Of a stretch of DNA of 64,000 nt, positions 5,047-40,615 are shown in pieces. Under the pieces are notes generated by a model. That model saw only the letters and a program-made list of their open reading frames with translations, was not told where the DNA came from and searched no databases. The DNA is from a bacterium (GTDB taxonomy: Bacteria; Patescibacteriota; Minisyncoccia; Portnoybacterales; GWB1-42-6), in assembly GCA_043800535.1 (NCBI GenBank), contig JAZDMV010000002.1, forward strand, positions 11,378 to 75,377. The letters run 5' to 3'. The translations under genes and the position numbers were made by a program. Each line of letters begins with the position of its first letter. Position 1 is the stretch's first letter.

Positions 5047-7350
5047 CTACAAAGCGCCTAGTATTTTCTTCTTCAATCCTTCCACATCAAATTCAGCGAA
5101 TTTATATACTTCATCCACCGCGCCGGATTTAAGGAAGCGGTCGATCCCGATAACCCGTTTCTGATAATCGCCGGGCAGAATGAAAGGGTTCAAAAACGCC
5201 GGCCAGCCATTGTGCAGAGTTATGACATACTGACGCTCTTCGTCTGGCAAAATTGAATCGGCTTTGGCCGGATCGTTCTTTTTCAGCTCTTCAAAAAGCT
5301 CGGGTGAAGTGACCGCGATAATTTTTATATCCGCATTCTGCTCCAATTCAGGCAAACTTGCCAAAACATTAGCCATCACTTGCCCGCCGCAGATGGCAAA
5401 AATAACTTTTTTCTTGCCGTTTTCCGCGAATGGCTTGTAAACATAAGCGCCATTTATTGCCTCTTTAGCAGGAGGCACTCCGTTTTCGCGTTTTAAAACC
5501 GGCGTTCCCGGCCGCATGATAGATAACGCGATCGGCTCCTGTTTTTCCATCGCATAAAACAGCATCTCAATTGTTTCATTGGCATCCATGGGTTTATAAA
5601 CTTTTATTCCCGGATAAGCGTTAAACAGCGACATCCAGAATAGCCCATGATGCGTTTCGCCGTCCTCGCCCGTTTCCGGGCCGTCGTGAGCCGCCAGCAT
5701 AATAAAAAATCCTTTACGCTTTGGGTTGACGTAATTATTGATCAACGCCATGCGCACCGAATTGGCCATAATTGAGGTAAACACGCCATATGACGCAAAG
5801 ACGCTCATTGCCTGATATCCGCCCGGCAGAATATCCTGGGTCAAACTGCTTCCCATCATAGCCATATTCTGCTCGGCAATGCCGTAGCGGAAACCGCGGC
5901 CCAAAGGATTGCTCGGACTGATAATCCCATAAACATTCTCCGCATTTTTGGTCAAAATAGAACCAGCCAGATCGCCGGAACCAACGTAGAAAAACGCTGA
6001 CTGCTTCATCATCCATTCAAAAAATGCTTCAGTCGCTTTTCTTGTGGCGATTGCTTCGCCTTCCTTGAAAACCAGTTCCGGCGGCAAAACATCCGGCCGC
6101 TTAATAGATTTATAATCAGCCATCGGCCGGTCTTTTAACACTTCCGCCATTTTTCCAGATAGCTCTTTTTCCGGCCTAATCCTTTCTTTATCAACGTTCA
6201 GGCGGTCAAATATATATTCAACATCCTCTTGAGTCAATTGAGAGATCACAACATCAATGTCTTTTTGCGTATCGCCCTCAATTCCGGGAATATCAAAGCC
6301 GATCGCTTTCATTATTTCAACGTAATCCGGATGTGCGACAGGCGCGCCGTGCGAGCCGGCCGTGCCGGCCAGCTTGCCGTAAAACTTCCCTTTGATAGTA
6401 TGGCAAATAATAACTGTGGCTTTTTTATTTCCAAACCCCTGATAGGCCTTATGATAAGCATAAGCGATCTCAAGAGGGTTATGGCCGTCAATTTCAATAA
6501 TGTTCCAGCCCGGGCCAAACCAATAATTATCAATGGGCAAGCTTATGACTTCGCCAATCGGCCCGTCTATGCCAAAATTATTATTATCAAGAGTAACGAT
6601 AATATTATCGGCGCCCATTGAAATAATGGAATTGCGCGCCTCATAACTTATTCCCTCTTCGGTTTCCGCGTCGCCCGCGATAACGTGCACTTTTGCGTCC
6701 AGCCCGTTTGATTTTTGCAAAATTGCCAAGCCAAGCCCGACAGAAAAACCATGCCCCGAAGAACCGGTTGAAGCGTCAGCCAAAGCATAACTTGATTCAA
6801 CATGGCCACTCGGGCCGTCGCAATGCCTGAAACGAGTCAGGCAAGAAGGCGTTGAATAGCCAAGCGCGTCTTTATCCAGCTTCACGCCTTTGCGCGACAT
6901 TACCTCCCAAATGAGCGCAAGCAAAGAATGTTGCAATGGCGTGCAATGCCCGGCGGACCAGACAATGCGGTCCCGGCCGGGATTTTTTGGGTCCTGCGGG
7001 TCAAAGGCAAAAATGCCGGAAAACAGCAAGCTTAATAAGATCTCAGTCTTTGAAGAAGATCCTCCCGGATGGCCAGATTTAATTCCATCCATCGCGGCAA
7101 AACTTAAACCGCGCACAACTCGCGCGATGTTTTCTATTCTAACGATATCAACTCCATCAATAGGTGCCAATTCAAGTCCTTTTAGATTTAAATAAACCCC
7201 CACACCTTCTTCTGCTTGATTATTTTTTTGGCTAGTTTCGGAACTCGCTAAGGTGTGGGGGTAAAAACCGCCTTCGGCCTGATACTGAAAGCGCTGCGGC
7301 TCCTTCTCCTTAAGCATGCCTAATTCCTTCTCATCGAGAATATTGTACAT
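5047..7350 (-). CDS. tkt: transketolase (full length, with about 80-aa N-terminal extension)
   Basis: Contains GHPGGSSS and EGISYEA segments, which I recall as transketolase TPP-binding signatures. The N-terminal extension includes an in-frame palindrome (7197-7261). Confidence 0.8.
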   Translation of the reverse strand: MYNILDEKELGMLKEKEPQRFQYQAEGGFYPHTLASSETSQKNNQAEEGVGVYLNLKGLELAPIDGVDIVRIENIARVVRGLSFAAMDGIKSGHPGGSSSKTEILLSLLFSGIFAFDPQDPKNPGRDRIVWSAGHCTPLQHSLLALIWEVMSRKGVKLDKDALGYSTPSCLTRFRHCDGPSGHVESSYALADASTGSSGHGFSVGLGLAILQKSNGLDAKVHVIAGDAETEEGISYEARNSIISMGADNIIVTLDNNNFGIDGPIGEVISLPIDNYWFGPGWNIIEIDGHNPLEIAYAYHKAYQGFGNKKATVIICHTIKGKFYGKLAGTAGSHGAPVAHPDYVEIMKAIGFDIPGIEGDTQKDIDVVISQLTQEDVEYIFDRLNVDKERIRPEKELSGKMAEVLKDRPMADYKSIKRPDVLPPELVFKEGEAIATRKATEAFFEWMMKQSAFFYVGSGDLAGSILTKNAENVYGIISPSNPLGRGFRYGIAEQNMAMMGSSLTQDILPGGYQAMSVFASYGVFTSIMANSVRMALINNYVNPKRKGFFIMLAAHDGPETGEDGETHHGLFWMSLFNAYPGIKVYKPMDANETIEMLFYAMEKQEPIALSIMRPGTPVLKRENGVPPAKEAINGAYVYKPFAENGKKKVIFAICGGQVMANVLASLPELEQNADIKIIAVTSPELFEELKKNDPAKADSILPDEERQYVITLHNGWPAFLNPFILPGDYQKRVIGIDRFLKSGAVDEVYKFAEFDVEGLKKKILGAL
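7197..7261. repeat. palindrome cccccacacctt...aaggtgtggggg lying in-frame in the tkt N-terminal extension
   Basis: 12-nt perfect inverted termini. The same cccccacac motif recurs at 50693-50760. Confidence 0.5.
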
Positions 7351-9227: not shown

Positions 9228-9671
9228 TTAGTTTCTTTCTATGTTCTCTATCTTCTCAATCCTCCTTAAATGCCTTCCTTCCGCGACGAACTCCGTGTCC
9301 AGCCACATTTTCACCAATTTTTTGGCAATATCATCGTCCAGCACTCTGCCGCCAAGACAAATGATATTTGCATTCAAATGTTCAGCCGCGCTTCTGGCTG
9401 TAAATTCGTCATAAACCAAAGCGGCGCGGATGCCGTCAACCTTATTTGCCGTGATGCAAACGCCTTGTCCCGTGCCGCAGATCAAAATGCCTTTTGAATC
9501 TTCATTTTCAACCACATTTTGCGCCAAGCGATATGCAAAATCAGGATAATCGTCAGACGGATCAAGCTGTTCATTCCCCAGGTCCTGGACGTCAAAACCA
9601 AGCTCAACCAAATATGGCCTCAACGCTTCTTTTAACGGATATCCCGCGTGGTCCGCGGCGATGAATAGCAT
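9228..9671 (-). CDS. rpiB: ribose-5-phosphate isomerase B
   Basis: ICGTGQG motif, 150-aa LacAB/RpiB size. Start placed at MLFIAADHAGY. Confidence 0.75.
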   Translation of the reverse strand: MLFIAADHAGYPLKEALRPYLVELGFDVQDLGNEQLDPSDDYPDFAYRLAQNVVENEDSKGILICGTGQGVCITANKVDGIRAALVYDEFTARSAAEHLNANIICLGGRVLDDDIAKKLVKMWLDTEFVAEGRHLRRIEKIENIERN

Positions 9672-30910: not shown

Positions 30911-31004
30911 ATCTAATCAGTTTCCCAGTTTCGGTTGCTTCGCAACCTTTCAGTTTTTCAGTTAAACTGACAAACTGTTAAACTGACAAACTGACCCATC
31001 TATC

Positions 31005-31025
31005 TAAAAAGCCCCGCAGGGCTTA
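31005..31025 (-). terminator. intrinsic terminator agccctgcggggct+UUUUU on the minus strand after the RT gene
   Basis: Hairpin and T-run read on the minus strand. Confidence 0.55.
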
Positions 31026-31068
31026 ATTAAACCCATTATAGCACTTCCTGTTTTGCCGTCAAGGGACG

Positions 31069-32172
31069 TTAAGATTCAGTCAAAATTTTATCAATTCTCG
31101 CCTTAATTTTATGCCCCTGACAATGTTTCAATATCCCAAAATATGACTGCAAGGTTTGACCAAAAGACGCTTCAGAGATCAGACCCGTCCGCAAACCTTG
31201 CCGCCTATTTATCATCTTCTTCAGTATTCTCTTTTTAGTTTTTGTCCGCAAAACCCGATAATACGGCAAAACTACATAGCCAAGAAAGTCAATCCCCTGA
31301 CGATACTTTCTGATTATTATTTTATCAGGATGTAAAGTTAATTTCAATCTTTCTTCAAGAAAATCGCTGATCAGCGGAATCAATCCGTTTAAATATTCTT
31401 CGTTTTCGCCCAAAATCACAAAATCATCGCAATAACGCAAATAGTATTTTTCTCTTAATCCGTGCTTAACAAATTGGTCAAGCTCGTTCAAATAGATATT
31501 GGCAAATAGCTGGCTGGTGACATTGCCAAGAGGCAAACCCTTGTTAGGCGATTTTTCAAAGCTTTTGATTATTGCTTCAATCAGCCATAAAATATTTTTC
31601 TCTTTGACTTTCTGCCTGACTAATTCCAACAAAATTTCATGATCAACTGAATCAAAAAACTTTCTAATATCGCATTTTAAAGCAAAAAGATCTTTTGTGT
31701 TATTTTGGCTTAATTTTCCGGCGAATTTTTCCAGTCGGCTGACTGCCCGATGTGTGCCCTTGCCCAAACGGCAAGAATATGAATCAAAGATAAAACTTTT
31801 ATCAAAAATTGGATACAAAACTCTAAATACGGCGTGGTGCAAAACTCTGTCGCGTACGCAAGCTTTGTGAATCCGCCTTGGCTTTGGGTCACATATTGAA
31901 AACGCGGTATAATGGGAGTGACAATAAGCTTTCGCTTTTAATTCATGATGGAGCTTGAATAAATTATCCTCTAAATTAAATTCAAATTCCTGAACGTCCG
32001 GTTTATTGCCTTTGCCTCGCTTAAATTCCCGCCAGGCCAAAAACAAATTTTCCAGCGAAATTATTTGCTCAAAAACTTTCCATCCTTCGGATGGTCGCCC
32101 GAAGGGCAATAACTTTTCACTTTTAACTTTAAACTCATGACTTATAACGCCCCCCCCCAGCGGGTTCAACAA
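31069..32172 (-). CDS. diversity-generating retroelement reverse transcriptase
   Basis: RT motifs: SICDPKPRRIHKACVRDRVLHHAV (motifs 1-2), LPLGNVTSQLFANIYLNELD (an SQ-type motif 4 that I recall as typical of DGR RTs), RYCDDFVILG (YxDD). Cognate TR/VR lie adjacent. The start may instead be a TTG about 60 nt downstream; a G9 tract lies at codons 6-8. Confidence 0.85.
   Translation of the reverse strand: MLNPLGGGVISHEFKVKSEKLLPFGRPSEGWKVFEQIISLENLFLAWREFKRGKGNKPDVQEFEFNLEDNLFKLHHELKAKAYCHSHYTAFSICDPKPRRIHKACVRDRVLHHAVFRVLYPIFDKSFIFDSYSCRLGKGTHRAVSRLEKFAGKLSQNNTKDLFALKCDIRKFFDSVDHEILLELVRQKVKEKNILWLIEAIIKSFEKSPNKGLPLGNVTSQLFANIYLNELDQFVKHGLREKYYLRYCDDFVILGENEEYLNGLIPLISDFLEERLKLTLHPDKIIIRKYRQGIDFLGYVVLPYYRVLRTKTKKRILKKMINRRQGLRTGLISEASFGQTLQSYFGILKHCQGHKIKARIDKILTES
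32150..32158. repeat. C9/G9 homopolymer at the RT 5' end / avd-RT divergent promoter
   Basis: acgc ccccccccc agcgg. The only run of this length I noticed in the window. Confidence 0.8.
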
Positions 32173-32188
32173 GTTTGAAGTCCCTGTT

Positions 32189-32506
32189 TTGCATAGAATT
32201 TTTGAGCTGTATAAATTATTTCACAAATGCCTGATATTATTCCCAAAACAAGAAAAATATACGCTGGGACAAAAAATAGAAAATACGATTTTGGAAACAC
32301 TTGAGCTAACCCTATCGGCAAGCTATTCTAATATCTACAAAAAGGAAATTCTAACAAAAGCAAATAATAAAGTTGACCTTTTGAAATATCTAATCCGGCT
32401 TTCCCACGAGACAGATTCTGTCAAAATCAAAAGTTGTCTGACGCTGGAAGAAATAATCATTGAAATCGGAAAAATGATTGGCGGCTGGCGGCGTTCTCTC
32501 AAATAA
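32189..32506 (+). CDS. avd: Avd-like accessory protein (four-helix-bundle family)
   Basis: 105 aa. LYKLFHKCLILFPKQEKYTLGQKIE and C-terminal EIGKMIGGWRRSLK resemble the FPK.EKY ... EIGKML.GLIKSLK pattern of PF05635/Avd proteins. Divergent from the RT, which is unusual. Confidence 0.65.
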   Translation: MHRIFELYKLFHKCLILFPKQEKYTLGQKIENTILETLELTLSASYSNIYKKEILTKANNKVDLLKYLIRLSHETDSVKIKSCLTLEEIIIEIGKMIGGWRRSLK

Positions 32507-32523
32507 AATTGGCTTTAACTTTG

Positions 32524-32554
32524 AAAAGAAGCCCCGTGTCTTACGGGGCTTCTT
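32524..32554. terminator. perfect hairpin gaagccccgtgtcttacggggcttc between avd and TR
   Basis: 9-bp stem. Terminator for avd. Confidence 0.5.
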
Positions 32555-32571
32555 TGACTATACTTAGCACT

Positions 32572-32691
32572 ACCGACAAACAAAAGACCGGAAGAATAGT
32601 TGTCGTTCGCGTTGCCCAGATTGCCCCTGTTGTCAAAGTTGAGCCTGTCATCATTGGCCTTGAAGTTAAGCGAATAGTCCGACGACTGTCA
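32572..32691 (-). repeat. DGR template repeat (TR), sense strand = minus
   Basis: 120 bp nearly identical to 32943-33062. Sense strand is Asn-codon rich: QSSDYSLNFKANDDRLNFDNRGNLGNANDNYSSGLLFVGS. Every mismatch to VR is at a TR adenine. Confidence 0.85.
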
Positions 32692-32886
32692 ATAATTTGT
32701 TCTTTCCCGCCCCAAGCCACCAGAAGAGCATAAACTGCGCTTCTTGTATTTTATTCGGTCCCGGCTGGACCATAGAAAAGGACAAGGAGTGCTATAAATA
32801 TATTCGGCGACCTTGATTTGTTAAAAACCAAGATACATTAGCCTACGAATTTATTATACCAAAAAAATAAAAAGGGCGTAACGTGA

Positions 32887-32916
32887 TACTCATCGTTACG
32901 CCCTTGCAAAGATTCA
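32887..32916. other. 10-bp-stem hairpin gggcgtaacg-N10-cgttacgccc about 25 bp downstream of VR
   Basis: Position matches the DGR hairpin/cruciform reported to promote mutagenic homing. Also serves as the target-gene terminator. Confidence 0.5.
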
Positions 32917-32935
32917 AAGATCAAGGGACAAAGAA

Positions 32936-33898
32936 TCAACTCCCGACAAACAAAAGACCGGAAGAATAGCTGCCGCTCGCGCCGCCCAGATTGCCCCTGC
33001 TGCCAAAGTAGAGCCCGCCATCATCGGCCACGAAGCAAAGCGAATAGTCCGACGACTGCCAACTTAAAGCCGATAAATCCAATCCTGGCGTGTACCAATC
33101 TCTGGCAAGGACATCTGGATACATCGCCAGTGCGATGGCCGTGTCAAAGCCGCCAGCCATCAGTAAAGATTCCGGAAGATGGAATAATTGTTCCCGGCTT
33201 GCCAGAACAGAAAACCCTTGCAAGGGGTTAGGGAAATAAATCGCGACTACATAGCTCTTTATCATATTAAAAACGAGTTTCTCATGCCGCGTTCCTTCCA
33301 CGATACCCACCTTGCCCTCCAGCTCGTTTTCCCGGTAACTATAAAACTTCCTGCCGGGAAATTGTTTCTCGAAAGAAAATTTAACGGCCGGCAGAAAAAT
33401 CCGTTCCAGGGCCCGACCATAGTCCTCAATGCTTTCCAGCTTCGGCAGGATAATCGGCAGATAAACGCCATTGAGTAAATTGACAATCTTTTTGTTGTCT
33501 TTAATTTGGCCAATCAGCTCGTTGGCTCTGCCTTCGAATTCAGCAACTGACATAAATAGGCCGGGCTTGAAAGCTTCCTGAAAATAGACAAGCCGATTTG
33601 CATAACCATCAATGGTATTCAAGCTCGGCTGGACAAGATAAAATTTCTTGTCCGGATCGCAAACCGCGTTTTTCAAGCCCTTTGCCGGAATTACGCGGCC
33701 GTTTTTGTCCGCGAGCTTCGAAACTCTTTCAATGAGTTTAACTTCAAGCTCGTCCCTCAAAAGTGCATCAAGCTTCTCTTCGTCGCCACCGCAAACCTTG
33801 CTTAAAATAGCGACAATCTGGCCCCCGGTTCGTCCTCTCAAAATTTCTAAAGAGCTTCCCATATCACACCTCCTGGTTTTGAGCTTTTTATTGCCCAA
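32936..33898 (-). CDS. DGR target protein (320 aa) with C-terminal variable region
   Basis: C-terminus ...WQSSDYSLCFVADDGGLYFGSRGNLGGASGSYSSGLLFVGS overlaps VR. No signal peptide seen. Fold unassigned. Confidence 0.7.
   Translation of the reverse strand: MGNKKLKTRRCDMGSSLEILRGRTGGQIVAILSKVCGGDEEKLDALLRDELEVKLIERVSKLADKNGRVIPAKGLKNAVCDPDKKFYLVQPSLNTIDGYANRLVYFQEAFKPGLFMSVAEFEGRANELIGQIKDNKKIVNLLNGVYLPIILPKLESIEDYGRALERIFLPAVKFSFEKQFPGRKFYSYRENELEGKVGIVEGTRHEKLVFNMIKSYVVAIYFPNPLQGFSVLASREQLFHLPESLLMAGGFDTAIALAMYPDVLARDWYTPGLDLSALSWQSSDYSLCFVADDGGLYFGSRGNLGGASGSYSSGLLFVGS
32943..33062 (-). repeat. DGR variable repeat (VR) encoding the last 40 codons of the target gene
   Basis: 16 mismatches to TR counted by eye, all at TR sense-strand A positions (A->G about 13, A->T about 3). 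The 3'-terminal about 27 nt are identical (IMH-like). Confidence 0.85.
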
Positions 33899-33963
33899 AA
33901 CATTGGCCTCTTCCCTTGGCCGTTGGGGCTTTTTAAAGCAAAATTAGCATATCACATAAAATA

Positions 33964-36108
<2,145 letters not shown>

Positions 36109-40300: not shown

Positions 40301-40306
40301 CGCGAC

Positions 40307-40378
40307 GCGGGGTAGAGAAGAAGTATCTCGGGGGTCTCATAAGCCCCAGACCCCGGTGCAATTCCGGGCCCCGCAACA
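40307..40378 (+). tRNA. tRNA-like sequence, anticodon CAT, atypical (3-bp D stem, no GG, T-loop tgcaatt); possible pseudo-tRNA or unusual tRNA-Met
   Basis: Acceptor gcgggg/ccccgc. Anticodon stem ggggt/gcccc with loop ctCATaa. T stem cccgg/ccggg. Confidence 0.4.
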
Positions 40379-40451
40379 CTTTTGATCTGAAAAAACGCCG
40401 ATGGTTAAATGGTGACAGTGTTTAATTTTGGCGTTATATTTATTTTAGCGA

Positions 40452-40524
40452 GGCGGGGTAGCTCAACTGGTAGAGCGTGGGACTCATAAGCCCAAGGTCG
40501 TGGGTTCAACCCCCACCCCCGCTA
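40452..40524 (+). tRNA. tRNA-Met (CAT; could be Ile2/lysidine type)
   Basis: Clover-leaf: ggcgggg/ccccgct acceptor; gctc-aactggta-gagc D arm; loop ctCATaa; T arm gtggg-ttcaacc-cccac. CCA not encoded. Confidence 0.75.
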
Positions 40525-40539
40525 CAATAAGTCATTTAT

Positions 40540-40615
40540 GGACCGTTAGTGTATCCTTGTCTAACACGTCTCCGTGTCACGTAGAAGAGCGCGGGTTCAA
40601 TTCCCGCACGGTCCG
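40540..40615 (+). tRNA. tRNA-Asp (GTC), one anticodon-stem mismatch
   Basis: ggaccgt/acggtcc acceptor; T arm gcggg-ttcaatt-cccgc; anticodon loop gtGTCac. Confidence 0.6.

Follow-up and report, generated by a model that had tools for sequence, protein, structure and literature searches.

CPR diversity-generating retroelements (DGRs) in which an inverted avd (accessory variability determinant) gene lies between the template repeat (TR) and the reverse transcriptase (RT) gene were reportedly first surveyed by Paul et al. 2017. Such elements correspond to clade 2 of Roux et al. 2021 and to architecture B3, with "UVR"-type targets, of Wu et al. 2018, and the order TR-(avd)-RT is found in 90% of CPR DGRs (Wu 2018). 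They carry a single C-terminal variable repeat (VR), with occasional non-adenine substitutions, in targets that usually lack signal peptides, transmembrane segments or known domains, their activity is below average, and the control of their RT was left open (Roux 2021). The prototype of the DGRs is that of Bordetella phage BPP-1 (mtd-avd-TR-brt), whose target is a tail fibre. A further point of comparison is provided by the contingency loci of phase variation (Neisseria, Haemophilus, Campylobacter, Helicobacter), in which a poly-G or dinucleotide tract within an open reading frame (ORF), or at its 5′ end, sets the frame by its length, and in which this length differs between near-identical genomes. 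Most of the contingency genes known so far specify surface structures or enzymes of restriction-modification.

The element described here is chromosomal, and not phage-borne as in BPP-1. It comes from an ultra-small bacterium (CPR/Patescibacteria), lies in a 64-kb stretch of DNA that was analyzed as a whole (the window), and is probably an ordinary CPR DGR in which RT production is gated by slippage of a G tract, a reading to which we assign a probability of about 0.8. A sequence-only reading had proposed a complete DGR that combines RT, Avd and TR with a VR located 3′-terminally in a target gene, and since every defining component open to test was found, the core of this proposal is right. 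The word "complete" needs qualifying, in that the ATG start conserved in its clade is out of frame with the RT by +1, and the frame is open only from a TTG. The genes, the repeats and the tract are as follows:

31069..32194, minus strand: DGR RT gene (RVT_1, E 6.9e-24)
32150..32158, minus strand (C9 on the plus strand): G9 homopolymer tract, coding for Gly-Gly-Gly, at the RT gene's 5′ end
32189..32506, plus strand: avd, 105 aa, TTG start, between the TR and the RT gene and on the opposite strand to them
32569-32692, minus strand: TR, non-coding (TGA in the VR reading frame), with 30 adenines
32936..33862, minus strand: gene of the target (variable protein), 308 aa, coordinates with the stop codon, NCBI start ATG 33862
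32939-33062, minus strand: VR, forming the final 41 codons of the target gene

The order target-VR, TR, inverted avd, RT is that of Wu architecture B3, the single VR is C-terminal, the host group is the same, and the element is a CPR/Patescibacteria-type DGR (Roux clade 2, as judged by gene order, host group and target). All 16 loci of the target family that bear an RT have an identical architecture, with avd in the same position and orientation in all related cassettes, and the named homologues and loci come from Patescibacteria, Nealsonbacteria, Portnoybacteria, Moraniibacteria or Minisyncoccia MAGs, with the sole exception of one record labelled Gammaproteobacteria. Two traits that had been singled out as unusual, the divergent avd and the missing signal peptide of the target, are the rule among CPR DGRs, as surveyed in the papers cited above, and a third, the adjacency of gyrB, is not conserved, gyrB being absent from every related locus. 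The Avd-like ORF is present as proposed, and scores above the cutoff of 40 against PF22296 bAvd (E 6.7e-18, 65.6 bits), while narrowly missing the cutoff of 80 against NF033474 DivGenRetAVD (72.7 bits).

The TR and VR form a maximal ungapped match of 124 nt, at an offset of 370 and with 86% identity. The repeat pair recognized by eye is thus real, but longer than the 120 bp (40 codons) given for it, and its TR start was off by one (TR 32573 pairs with VR 32943). When the alignment is tabulated by TR base, as had been suggested as a check, 16 of the 17 mismatches fall on TR adenines (T on the plus strand, A on the coding minus strand), and the probability of placing at least 16 of 17 mismatches on 30 adenines among 124 nt is 4e-11 (hypergeometric). 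These comprise 13 A>G and 3 A>T changes, in agreement with the G or T that had been read at these positions. The strict adenine specificity that had been claimed thus holds for 16 mismatches but not for the seventeenth, which lies at 32572/32942, close (4 nt) to the 3′ end, and is a synonymous T>G (GGT/GGG) of the occasional non-adenine kind seen in other CPR DGRs. In related cassettes, we obtained 12 more independent TR/VR pairs, in which 197 of 214 mismatches are at TR adenines. We note separately that TR and VR differ at their extreme 3′ end in related cassettes too.

All but one of the 30 TR adenines occupy codon positions 1-2, and the TR includes 6 AAC and 2 AAT codons, in keeping with the AAC richness noted earlier; the in-frame translations of both repeats are exactly as they had been quoted. 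This placement, a criterion for DGRs and shared with the likewise adenine-specific BPP-1 element and its AAC codons, means that recoding avoids stop codons, which an adenine change can produce only from the AAG codon and the boundary TGA of the TR. The codon preceding the in-frame repeat is that TGA in the TR and TGG in the VR. The theoretical repertoire of the TR amounts to about 10^17 proteins. The 3′ block of 27 nt, CCGACAAACAAAAGACCGGAAGAATAG, is identical in both copies, as claimed, with no other copy in the window and 0 matches in 100 shuffles; it is followed by one TR/VR difference and then by divergence. This block is A/T-rich, in contrast to the GC-rich IMH of BPP-1, and hairpin/cruciform-type repeats after the IMH are present in only 34% of DGRs (Wu et al.). 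No additional VR was found in the 64 kb when searching with each TR adenine replaced by N.

The target ORF 32936-33898 exists as listed, running upstream to a TTG at 33898, and the VR ends at its last codon; its length of 320 aa becomes 308 aa with the ATG annotated by NCBI. The protein consists of an N-terminal domain of ~200 aa and a C-terminal C-type-lectin-like domain of ~110 aa. The C-terminus, which carries the VR and whose fold had been put forward for checking, is predicted to adopt a C-type-lectin fold, as does the VR-bearing domain in BPP-1, with the solved DGR variable proteins Treponema TvpA (2y3c), Thermus TaqVP (5vf4) and Mtd (1yu0) as C-type-lectin/FGE-fold comparators, and the Legionella Lcl C-terminal domain/DUF1566 as a further one. 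The hypervariable columns of the target-family alignment coincide with the adenine-containing codons of the TR. The target, whose 90% cluster has a single member, is not a tail fibre as in BPP-1 and is probably cytoplasmic; as in other CPR DGRs, no signal peptide, transmembrane segment or Pfam domain was found in it.

Around the TR, and downstream of the VR, we find a series of RNA structures and putative signals:

32525..32555, strand not assigned: strong hairpin (9-bp GC-rich stem with A-run/U-run arms), 13 nt after the TR
32565..32574, minus strand: TR 3′-end strand of a long-range helix, GGUAGUGCUA, partner of the leader strand
32693..32845, minus strand: structured TR leader, 153 nt, upstream of the TR, defined by covariation
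32786..32794, minus strand: leader strand of the long-range helix, UAGCACUCC, pairing with the TR 3′ end
32853..32861, minus strand: extended -10-like element TGgTATAAT, followed after 7-8 nt by the first conserved nucleotide of the leader
32874..32903, strand not assigned: hairpin with a 10-bp GC-rich stem and a T-run behind it, located 33 nt past the stop codon of the target gene

The leader is composed of a hairpin P1, the single-stranded segment that provides the leader strand of the long-range helix, and a helix P2 that closes a three-way junction with P3 and P4 and ends about 8 nt before the TR. Across 13 lineages, compensatory changes occur in 22 of its 38 pairs (RNAalifold), 96.1% of cells are paired compared to 38-57% with the partners slid, and 0 of 500 shuffles reach the observed value; with 20 sequences, 32 of the 38 pairs covary. 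A covariance model (R1), run over 349 kb, matches in each cassette 5′ of the TR and at no other place, with the window leader scoring as high as any relative (159.9 bits). No Rfam family corresponds to the leader, with only three chance matches below the gathering thresholds in 31000-34000, and a scan of the whole window returned tRNAs only. In the long-range helix, 83.9% of cells are paired compared to 18-50% with the partners slid, 5 of 10 pairs show compensatory changes, and the covariation score is attained by 0 of 500 shuffles, although most of this covariation stems from the divide between two clades. Directly 5′ of the TR strand of this helix, the template has a C, at 32575, which is predicted to be the first nucleotide copied, such that the non-adenine mismatch at 32572 falls within the helix, 3′ of the predicted initiation site. 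The -10-like element is a putative promoter of the TR RNA, judged by its motif, and a TATAAT, TATACT or TATTCT hexamer occupies the same alignment columns in 6 lineages.

Each of the 13 lineages has a hairpin at a distance of 5-17 nt behind the TR, and the sequences of these hairpins differ. The one at 32525..32555, between the TR and the convergent avd, is a candidate Avd-binding stem-loop, bidirectional terminator, or both. In 207 of 278 Avd-type DGRs, CPR included, a putative stem-loop for Avd binding has been described directly 3′ of the TR (Handa et al.). The hairpin at 32874..32903 is probably the terminator of the target gene; the 75 nt downstream of the VR that include it fold with -25.7 kcal/mol (RNAfold), and equivalents occur in L001, L002 and L036. 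BPP-1 likewise has a stem-loop just 3′ of its TR and a duplex involving the TR 3′ end. However, its structured RNA lies downstream of the TR and that of the present element upstream, so that the modules look permuted, the long spacer RNA between TR and RT of BPP-1 is absent here, and avd is inverted, unlike that of BPP-1.

In the mechanism that we propose, an RNA of ~320 nt would be made from its own promoter and would consist of the 153-nt leader, the 124-nt TR and the 3′ hairpin, where the structure comes from covariation and we infer the ends of the transcript. The leader would then pair with the last nucleotides of the TR, with helix P2 just 5′ of the TR, thereby positioning RT-Avd such that, by analogy with BPP-1, cDNA synthesis would start near C32575 and stop at the TR 5′ end. 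The RT would copy the TR faithfully except at adenines, and the cDNA would subsequently replace the VR, recoding up to about 20 codons on the C-terminal lectin-like face of the 308-aa protein; the outcome of this step is visible in the 16 adenine-specific differences, and the process itself is modeled on the established DGR mechanism. Finally, RT production would be gated by the G tract, a hypermutable stretch with which the RT gene begins at its 5′ end, which we infer as a reversible switch from the length variation and frame effect shown in relatives.

The RT ORF 31069-32172, with LGNVTSQ as motif 4 and YCDD as motif 5 (DGR-type patterns [I/L]GxxxSQ and YxDD), is present as proposed, and is intact apart from the tract, with 60-74% identity to >100 homologues. 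As assembled, it can be read from TTG 32172 or 32169, giving 367 or 366 aa, the latter being the annotation at NCBI. Judging from the N-termini of 120 homologues, the conserved start of the RT clade is ATG 32194-32192, which overlaps avd by 6 nt, and the start-to-start distance of 16 bp given earlier is thus right for the listed ORFs but not for this start. With the tract at G9, which places the RT frame at +1, reading from this ATG ends at a stop after 19 codons. With one G too many, the RT would be off in the window, or made at a low level from the alternative TTG.

The G9 tract is the sole G/C run of at least 8 in the window, as established by a census. In 19 of 19 related lineages, the RT gene carries one long simple-sequence repeat, G8-G14 or (AG)5-12, compared to almost none outside the RT gene in 264 kb, and these repeats sit at two different positions and are of two kinds, poly-G and poly-AG. 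The homologous G tract is G8, G9, G10, G11 or G14 in 12 lineages, with G9 the commonest. At the DNA level, the canonical ATG is in frame only with G8, G11 or G14, and out of frame with G9 and G10, where the four in-frame examples were picked because their proteins were in frame and are therefore subject to a selection effect; L043 has G11 yet is out of frame, with a different flank. The gene-call classes of the 120 closest RT clusters number roughly 30/39/37, as three frames predict. In clade B the repeat is mid-gene, and 5 of 7 lineages are frameshifted exactly there with both RT halves intact. Within the populations of relatives that this comparison covers, tract length is the sole difference between L002 (G10) and L011 (G9) over 11.2 kb, and L006 ((AG)11) and L027 ((AG)12) have one other difference, an SNP. 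On the strength of these sequence patterns, the G9 tract looks like a candidate slipped-strand on/off switch of the RT.

The location of the tract, the dependence of the frame on its length, and the length differences between near-identical genomes (here in relatives) are shared with contingency loci, but the gene under the putative switch encodes, in this case, the polymerase behind targeted hypermutation, and the host belongs to the CPR. The repeat and the structured leader are features of this element's family compared to the CPR DGRs of Roux and Wu, no mention of either was found in the CPR DGR literature examined, and both appear to be undescribed so far. We note that the set of Wu et al. 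2018 is limited to "putatively functional" DGRs, so that frameshifted RTs would be excluded from it. An on/off repeat in the RT gene could help explain the restraint on targeted mutators such as DGRs.

The alternative that fares best, though we consider it distinctly the less probable one, is an ordinary constitutive CPR DGR, with the RT made from TTG 32172/32169, the tract a tolerated Gly-Gly-Gly, and the length differences between assemblies a matter of neutral drift or assembly noise with no regulatory role. The RT may indeed be fully functional from this TTG, as the ORF is open with G9 and annotated on that basis, and a start codon in the RT frame lies within 5 codons of the tract in several cases (TTG in the window, L010/11 and L037; ATG in L042). 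Homopolymer lengths from short-read assemblies can be wrong. Since 4 of 7 G9 lineages have such a start just upstream of the tract, G9, the commonest length, might even be a second "on" state. However, a repeat maintained in every lineage at two positions and in two kinds is hard to call neutral, an alternative start is impossible for the frameshifted clade B lineages, L002 lacks a start codon entirely, and conservation is seen in the peptide that is encoded from the ATG up to the tract (MQNRDFKLVEPAGGG here, MHQRHFKLVEPVGGG in P0125).

It is improbable, in our view, that the element is instead a decaying, inactive DGR, with the RT a frameshifted pseudogene and the VR a frozen trace of past retrohoming. 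Such decay would account for the out-of-frame canonical start, and it does occur among relatives, where the RT of L037 has an internal deletion of about 77 aa, and where many target homologues have lost the cassette, L009 keeping a partial leader only. The VRs are moreover identical across repeated assemblies of two related populations, which fits an "off" state and equally fits simple inactivity. Against this, the rest of the RT ORF, Avd, TR, leader and hairpin are all intact, the leader at a score unsurpassed among relatives, and the frameshift coincides with a repeat, where it is reversible, instead of falling at some arbitrary position.

We consider similarly improbable a repair of the frameshift at the level of the RNA or ribosome, through programmed +1 frameshifting or transcriptional slippage that would fix the RT at a low dose. 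Homopolymers are established slippage sites for RNA polymerase, and all 5 of the 5 lineages reached through the target gene have G9, that is, +1 relative to the ATG frame. A programmed site should, however, keep one length and offset, whereas the observed lengths of 8, 9, 10, 11 and 14 give all three frame relations, about a quarter of RT clusters are in frame in the DNA, and clade B uses (AG)n besides poly-G, with a correction of +1 required in part of its lineages and of -1 in the rest of those affected. The length difference between assemblies of one population likewise resides in the DNA.

Finally, that this is not a DGR but a group II intron or retron-type RT beside a duplicated gene fragment has a negligible probability and is effectively refuted: the best NCBIfam match is a group II intron RT/maturase and some homologues are named "retron-type" or "LtrA" in databases, but that match is far below its cutoff (161.8 bits compared to 300), the 367 aa contain no maturase or endonuclease domain and the Rfam scan found no group II intron RNA, the best solved relative, in a DGR-type assignment made from E-values against solved structures and from motifs, is BPP-1 bRT (8ub7, residues 33-322, E 8e-44), whose E-value is better than that of group II intron RTs (2e-22) by 21 orders of magnitude, the mismatches are adenine-specific, Avd is present, and the same cassette recurs with independent adenine-specific VRs.

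The region holds a single long direct repeat, recovered both by reading and by a repeat search, with copies of 124 nt at 32569-32692 and 32939-33062 (offset 370), and there is very little doubt in our minds that the element built around it is a real and typical diversity-generating retroelement (DGR) of the CPR. Its parts, as used below, are as follows.

Features of the cassette (coordinates, strand, description)
31069-32172 (-): reverse transcriptase (RT) gene
32150-32158: G9 tract at the RT 5' end, the only G/C run of at least 8 in the 64 kb
32189-32506 (+): avd, 105 aa, inverted between TR and RT
32569-32692 (-): template repeat (TR), non-coding
32693-32845 (-): structured leader RNA 5' of TR
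32861-32853: conserved -10-like hexamer TGgTATAAT, a putative promoter element, 7-8 nt ahead of the first conserved leader base
32939-33062 (-): variable repeat (VR), final 41 codons of the minus-strand target ORF

All but one of the 17 TR/VR mismatches fall at T on the plus strand, that is, at A on the minus (coding) strand of TR (13 A>G and 3 A>T; hypergeometric P for at least 16 of 17 on A = 4e-11, given 30 As in 124 nt). The sequence-only reading had described this pair correctly, save that its TR start was one base off and that it lacked the seventeenth, non-adenine mismatch at 32572. A 27-nt block at the 3' end is the same in both repeats and unique in the window (0 in 100 shuffles); with N in place of every A as query, TR had no third copy there. 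The TR adenines lie at codon positions 1-2 in 29 of 30 cases, including 6 AAC and 2 AAT codons, for a theoretical repertoire of ~10^17 proteins, and TR carries TGA at a family-invariant Trp codon that is TGG in VR. This last site (32689 in TR, 33059 in VR) is also the 5'-most difference between the repeats, and relatives have TGG in both copies; as faithful copying of the TR base would truncate the target, homing either rarely reaches so far 5', or the survivors are A>G only. We note also that the A>G bias is strong in the TR/VR pairs of the window (13/16) and of two related loci fetched for comparison, L003 (16/20) and L006 (12/13), and that the spectrum is balanced in L001 (3 G, 3 C, 5 T) and L023 (5 G, 3 C, 8 T); such differences among cassettes may come from selection on VR or from differences between the RTs.

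In a profile search the RT matches RVT_1, and its match to the group II intron RT model is far below threshold. Among solved structures the best relative is 8ub7 (E 8e-44 over residues 33-322, compared with 2e-22 for group II intron RTs), which is 100% identical to brt of the Bordetella phage BPP-1, and the RT carries YCDD together with the DGR version of motif 4, LGNVTSQ, so that the earlier assignment to the DGR type is borne out. The same holds for the Avd-like gene, which scores above the Pfam bAvd cutoff and slightly below the NCBIfam DGR-Avd cutoff; comparison of Avd with PDB sequences gave nothing useful. The target has no match in Pfam, NCBIfam or PDB sequences, and a Foldseek search of its model against PDB and viral (BFVD) structures returned no significant match. 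Its 147 homologues, of ~300 aa, all come from Patescibacteria or metagenomes and are conserved throughout except for columns in the final ~40 residues, the variable columns coinciding with the TR adenine codons. One member, L005, lies on an 876-kb contig (CAYVOI010000001.1) of a record labelled "uncultured Gammaproteobacteria bacterium", the family being otherwise confined to Patescibacteria, and the record is probably that of a CPR genome under the wrong label.

Scanning genome and metagenome collections and looking up contigs yielded 40 target-family loci, and in 16 of the 16 that bear an RT the order is target-VR, TR, avd (opposite strand), RT. Twelve further independent TR/VR pairs have mismatches at TR adenines in 11/12, 14/17, 20/21, 13/13, 12/14, 18/20, 21/24, 9/11, 16/17, 14/14, 25/26 and 14/15 cases. 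No RT, Avd or TR was found near the targets of L004, L005, L007-L009, L013, L019, L032, L038 and L039 within the downstream sequence (at least 2.6 kb, usually 5-6 kb), and the C-termini of these cassette-less homologues still vary at the same columns; in L009, a weak partial match to the TR leader 137 nt past the target stop (5428-5498, 23.6 bits, E 0.004) suggests a decayed cassette. A blastn comparison of the cassette with phage genomes gave short RT-motif matches only, and no phage relatives. Of the points singled out earlier as unusual, avd divergent to the RT and a target with no obvious signal peptide prove to be the rule for CPR DGRs (Wu et al.; Roux et al. 2021), and the third, the gyrB neighbour, is not conserved among the related loci. 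CPR DGRs belong to clade 2 of Roux et al. 2021, and as a DGR the element is a further member of a well-populated kind, with a catalogue in the tens of thousands. Its interest lies instead in a repeat at the start of the RT gene and in a covarying leader RNA.

The repeat came to light as an RT match split over two reading frames in several related loci, the junction being in each case a simple-sequence repeat. In one group of relatives it sits in the middle of the gene, within an insertion immediately upstream of motif 4 (GLPIGNxTSQ); in the sub-clade of the window it is instead a G tract at the RT 5' end.

Repeats in the RT gene, by position and by frame with the conserved ATG (DNA)
Mid-gene poly-G: G9 or G10 in L020, L029 and L031
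Mid-gene (AG)n: (AG)8 in L003; (AG)11/12 in L006/26/27; (AG)7 in L021; (AG)5 in L023
5' G tract, in frame (loci picked by their protein N-termini): G8 in L041 and L048; G11 in L046; G14 in L047
5' G tract, out of frame: G9 in the window, L001, L010/11, L036, L037, L042 and L044/45; G10 in L002
5' G tract, out of frame, different flank: G11 in L043

By analytic estimate ~0.4 G/C runs of at least 9 are expected per 64 kb, so the tract in the window is notable for its conserved position, not for its existence. Exactly one such repeat is present in the RT gene in 19 of 19 independent lineages, including loci fetched later through RT homologues, and the first 264 kb of loci contain nothing else of the sort beyond one C7 and a handful of (CG)4 runs. 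Two pairs of assemblies differ at the repeat: L002 and L011, over 11.2 kb, solely by one G in the tract, and L006 and L027 by an AG unit and a single SNP in 6.6 kb, differences that are between assemblies only and, for homopolymers, open to error in short-read calls. In the mid-gene clade, the frame is lost precisely at the repeat in five of seven lineages, with both RT halves otherwise intact, and the in-frame lineages are the two with the shortest repeats.

The N-termini of the 120 closest RT clusters (60-74% identity) fall into three start classes: ~30 begin MHQR.../MNQR..., their ATG lying antisense to avd codon 2 and their frame running on through GGG into the RT, ~39 are called, like that of the window, from ad hoc RT-frame starts before the tract, and ~37 are called from within the conserved N-terminus, so that about three quarters are not called from the conserved start. 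The DNA of the loci listed above bears out the predicted rule that tract length sets the frame. The RT of the window is +1 out of frame with the conserved ATG (32194-32192) and open only from TTG 32172/32169; the peptide read from that ATG, MQNRDFKLVEPAGGG, is similar to MHQRHFKLVEPVGGG of P0125, an RT homologue, and L041 is near-identical to the window around the tract, minus one G. The +1 frame would leave the RT either off or weakly expressed with a shorter N-terminus, an alternative start codon being present in several G9 lineages.

Taken together, the variable lengths in all three frames, the two kinds of repeat at two positions and the DNA differences within populations point to slipped-strand phase variation, and judging from sequence we put the probability that the repeat at the RT start is a phase-variable switch at roughly 0.6. 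The same evidence argues against both a programmed frameshift and plain decay of the RT gene. A reading in which ATG 32194 is a by-product of avd codon 2 and G9 is the "on" state was rejected, as the 120 N-termini and the DNA of L041 and L046-L048 show that the frame of this ATG is conserved. A candidate promoter, TTGAAC-17-TATAAG, whose spacer would hold the G tract, was dropped, being neither conserved in L001, L002 and L036 nor present in the promoter scan.

Under phase variation, a slippage-prone repeat (5' poly-G, or poly-G/(AG)n before motif 4) would leave the mutator off in most cells and turn it on in the minority, and the DGR would be a contingency locus governing a diversity generator. 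A mutator gated in this way would account for the apparently low activity of DGRs in the CPR: Roux et al. 2021 found DGR activity in clade 2 to be below average and left control of the RT open, and Macadangdang et al. write that DGR regulatory mechanisms "await discovery". We found no earlier description of the RT-gene repeat in the DGR literature searched. Restraint of mutagenic retrohoming being an open question, a repeat-length switch in the RT would, if true, be a concrete and testable mechanism; in addition, annotation pipelines and DGR surveys that require an intact RT would miss or truncate many CPR DGRs. The broader proposal, that such repeats provide stochastic control of the mutator across a large CPR clade and that a previously undescribed leader RNA gives the priming and stop functions, we consider an even call.

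Conservation is higher in the ~150 nt upstream of TR than in TR itself. Across 13 lineages, RNAalifold predicts a hairpin (P1) and a helix (P2) closing a junction from which P3 and P4 branch; compensatory changes occur at 22 of 38 pairs. Of the cells, 96.1% are paired, compared with 38-57% for slid partners, and the observed values were matched in 0 of 500 shuffles. With 20 sequences, in an alignment fitted to the covariance model of the leader, covariation extends to 32 of 38 pairs. We hold this structure, as deduced from covariation, with high confidence. The covariance model matches directly upstream of TR in every cassette, including loci outside the model-building set, and found no leader elsewhere in 349 kb save for two matches, the weak partial one in L009 and one in L015 that is insignificant (E 0.5). 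The leader matches no Rfam family; the sole Rfam match over gathering threshold in the window is a three-tRNA cluster at 40306-40615. A promoter-like site from the scan falls within this conserved, structured leader, at 32824-32797, and is probably not a promoter.

Two further elements lie at the TR 3' end. A long-range helix joins UAGCACUCC in the leader (32794-32786) to GGUAGUGCUA at the TR 3' end (32574-32565), with 83.9% of cells paired compared with 18-50% when slid and compensatory changes at 5 of 10 pairs, and a strong hairpin follows TR in 13 of 13 lineages. In BPP-1, the RNA around TR supplies three elements: an Avd-binding stem-loop immediately 3' of TR, a duplex of template and primer at the TR 3' end, and, on the 5' side of TR, a "stop" duplex. 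Putative equivalents have been reported for 207 of 278 Avd-type DGRs, including those of CPR. By analogy, the hairpin after TR may bind Avd, act as a terminator or do both, the helix between the leader and the TR 3' end may be the priming duplex, and P2, which ends ~8 nt ahead of TR, may be the stop; we consider this assignment of functions about evenly balanced between right and wrong. With that helix as priming duplex, copying is predicted to start at C32575, and the non-adenine mismatch at 32572, like equivalent TR/VR differences in relatives, would persist because it lies 3' of the predicted start and is never copied. Whereas the priming and stop functions are placed downstream of TR in BPP-1, the RNA modules here appear upstream of it, which would fit with avd being inverted between TR and RT. 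If it holds, the leader suggests that the RNA modules surrounding the template are open to permutation, a point that bears on the engineering of DGRs into tools for programmable mutagenesis, and it defines a ~320-nt RNA for reconstituting a CPR DGR.

The leader model also matches cassettes with a different target family of ~245 aa and no Pfam domain (L042-L044 and L046). In L042 (955-1686), L043 (929-1657) and L044 (892-1644) the RTs are 70-74% identical to that of the window, with no change in the inverted avd, the G tract or the TR leader; target genes have therefore been swapped under a conserved RT/Avd/RNA module. In L037 the RT (5678-6502) has an in-frame internal deletion of ~77 aa (window residues ~113-185, fingers/motifs 1-2) and is probably inactive; the TR, leader, avd and G9 tract are intact. 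The orphan targets of L039 (4132-4141) and L040 (945-954) carry (AG)5 in the N-terminal part of the gene, at codon ~44, a short repeat with no length variation between the two contigs.

A PolX gene (family-X DNA polymerase, PHP domain) adjoins the cassette in three independent lineages (L036:3980-5722, where it overlaps the RT stop by 4 nt; L002 ~9300-9520; L042:1-762), and the window contains none. The proximity may be coincidental or may reflect a tie to cDNA integration or repair. Within the PolX-like gene, L002 (9401-9413) and L010, assemblies otherwise ~99.9% identical, differ by 3 G/A and 1 A/T within 13 nt; a second VR ~750 nt downstream of the RT was rejected for this four-substitution cluster, which has no similarity to TR.

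In the window, an in-frame insertion, KVKSEKLLPFGRPSEGW (32078-32110), separates the G tract from the conserved RT N-terminus and contains a hairpin, CCATCCGAAGGATGG, that the scan flagged as terminator-like. A different, longer, palindrome-rich insertion occupies the same site in L001 (5994-6090), with none in L002. Such inserts may have a regulatory role as hairpins, or may simply be small palindromic insertions. Finally, the intergenic stretch from a secE-like ORF to the RT 3' end contains a perfect 16-nt tandem duplication at 30961-30995 (GTTAAACTGACAAACT twice, or alternatively AAACTGAC four times), near a strong promoter-like site on the minus strand (31062-31035, 11/12 matches).
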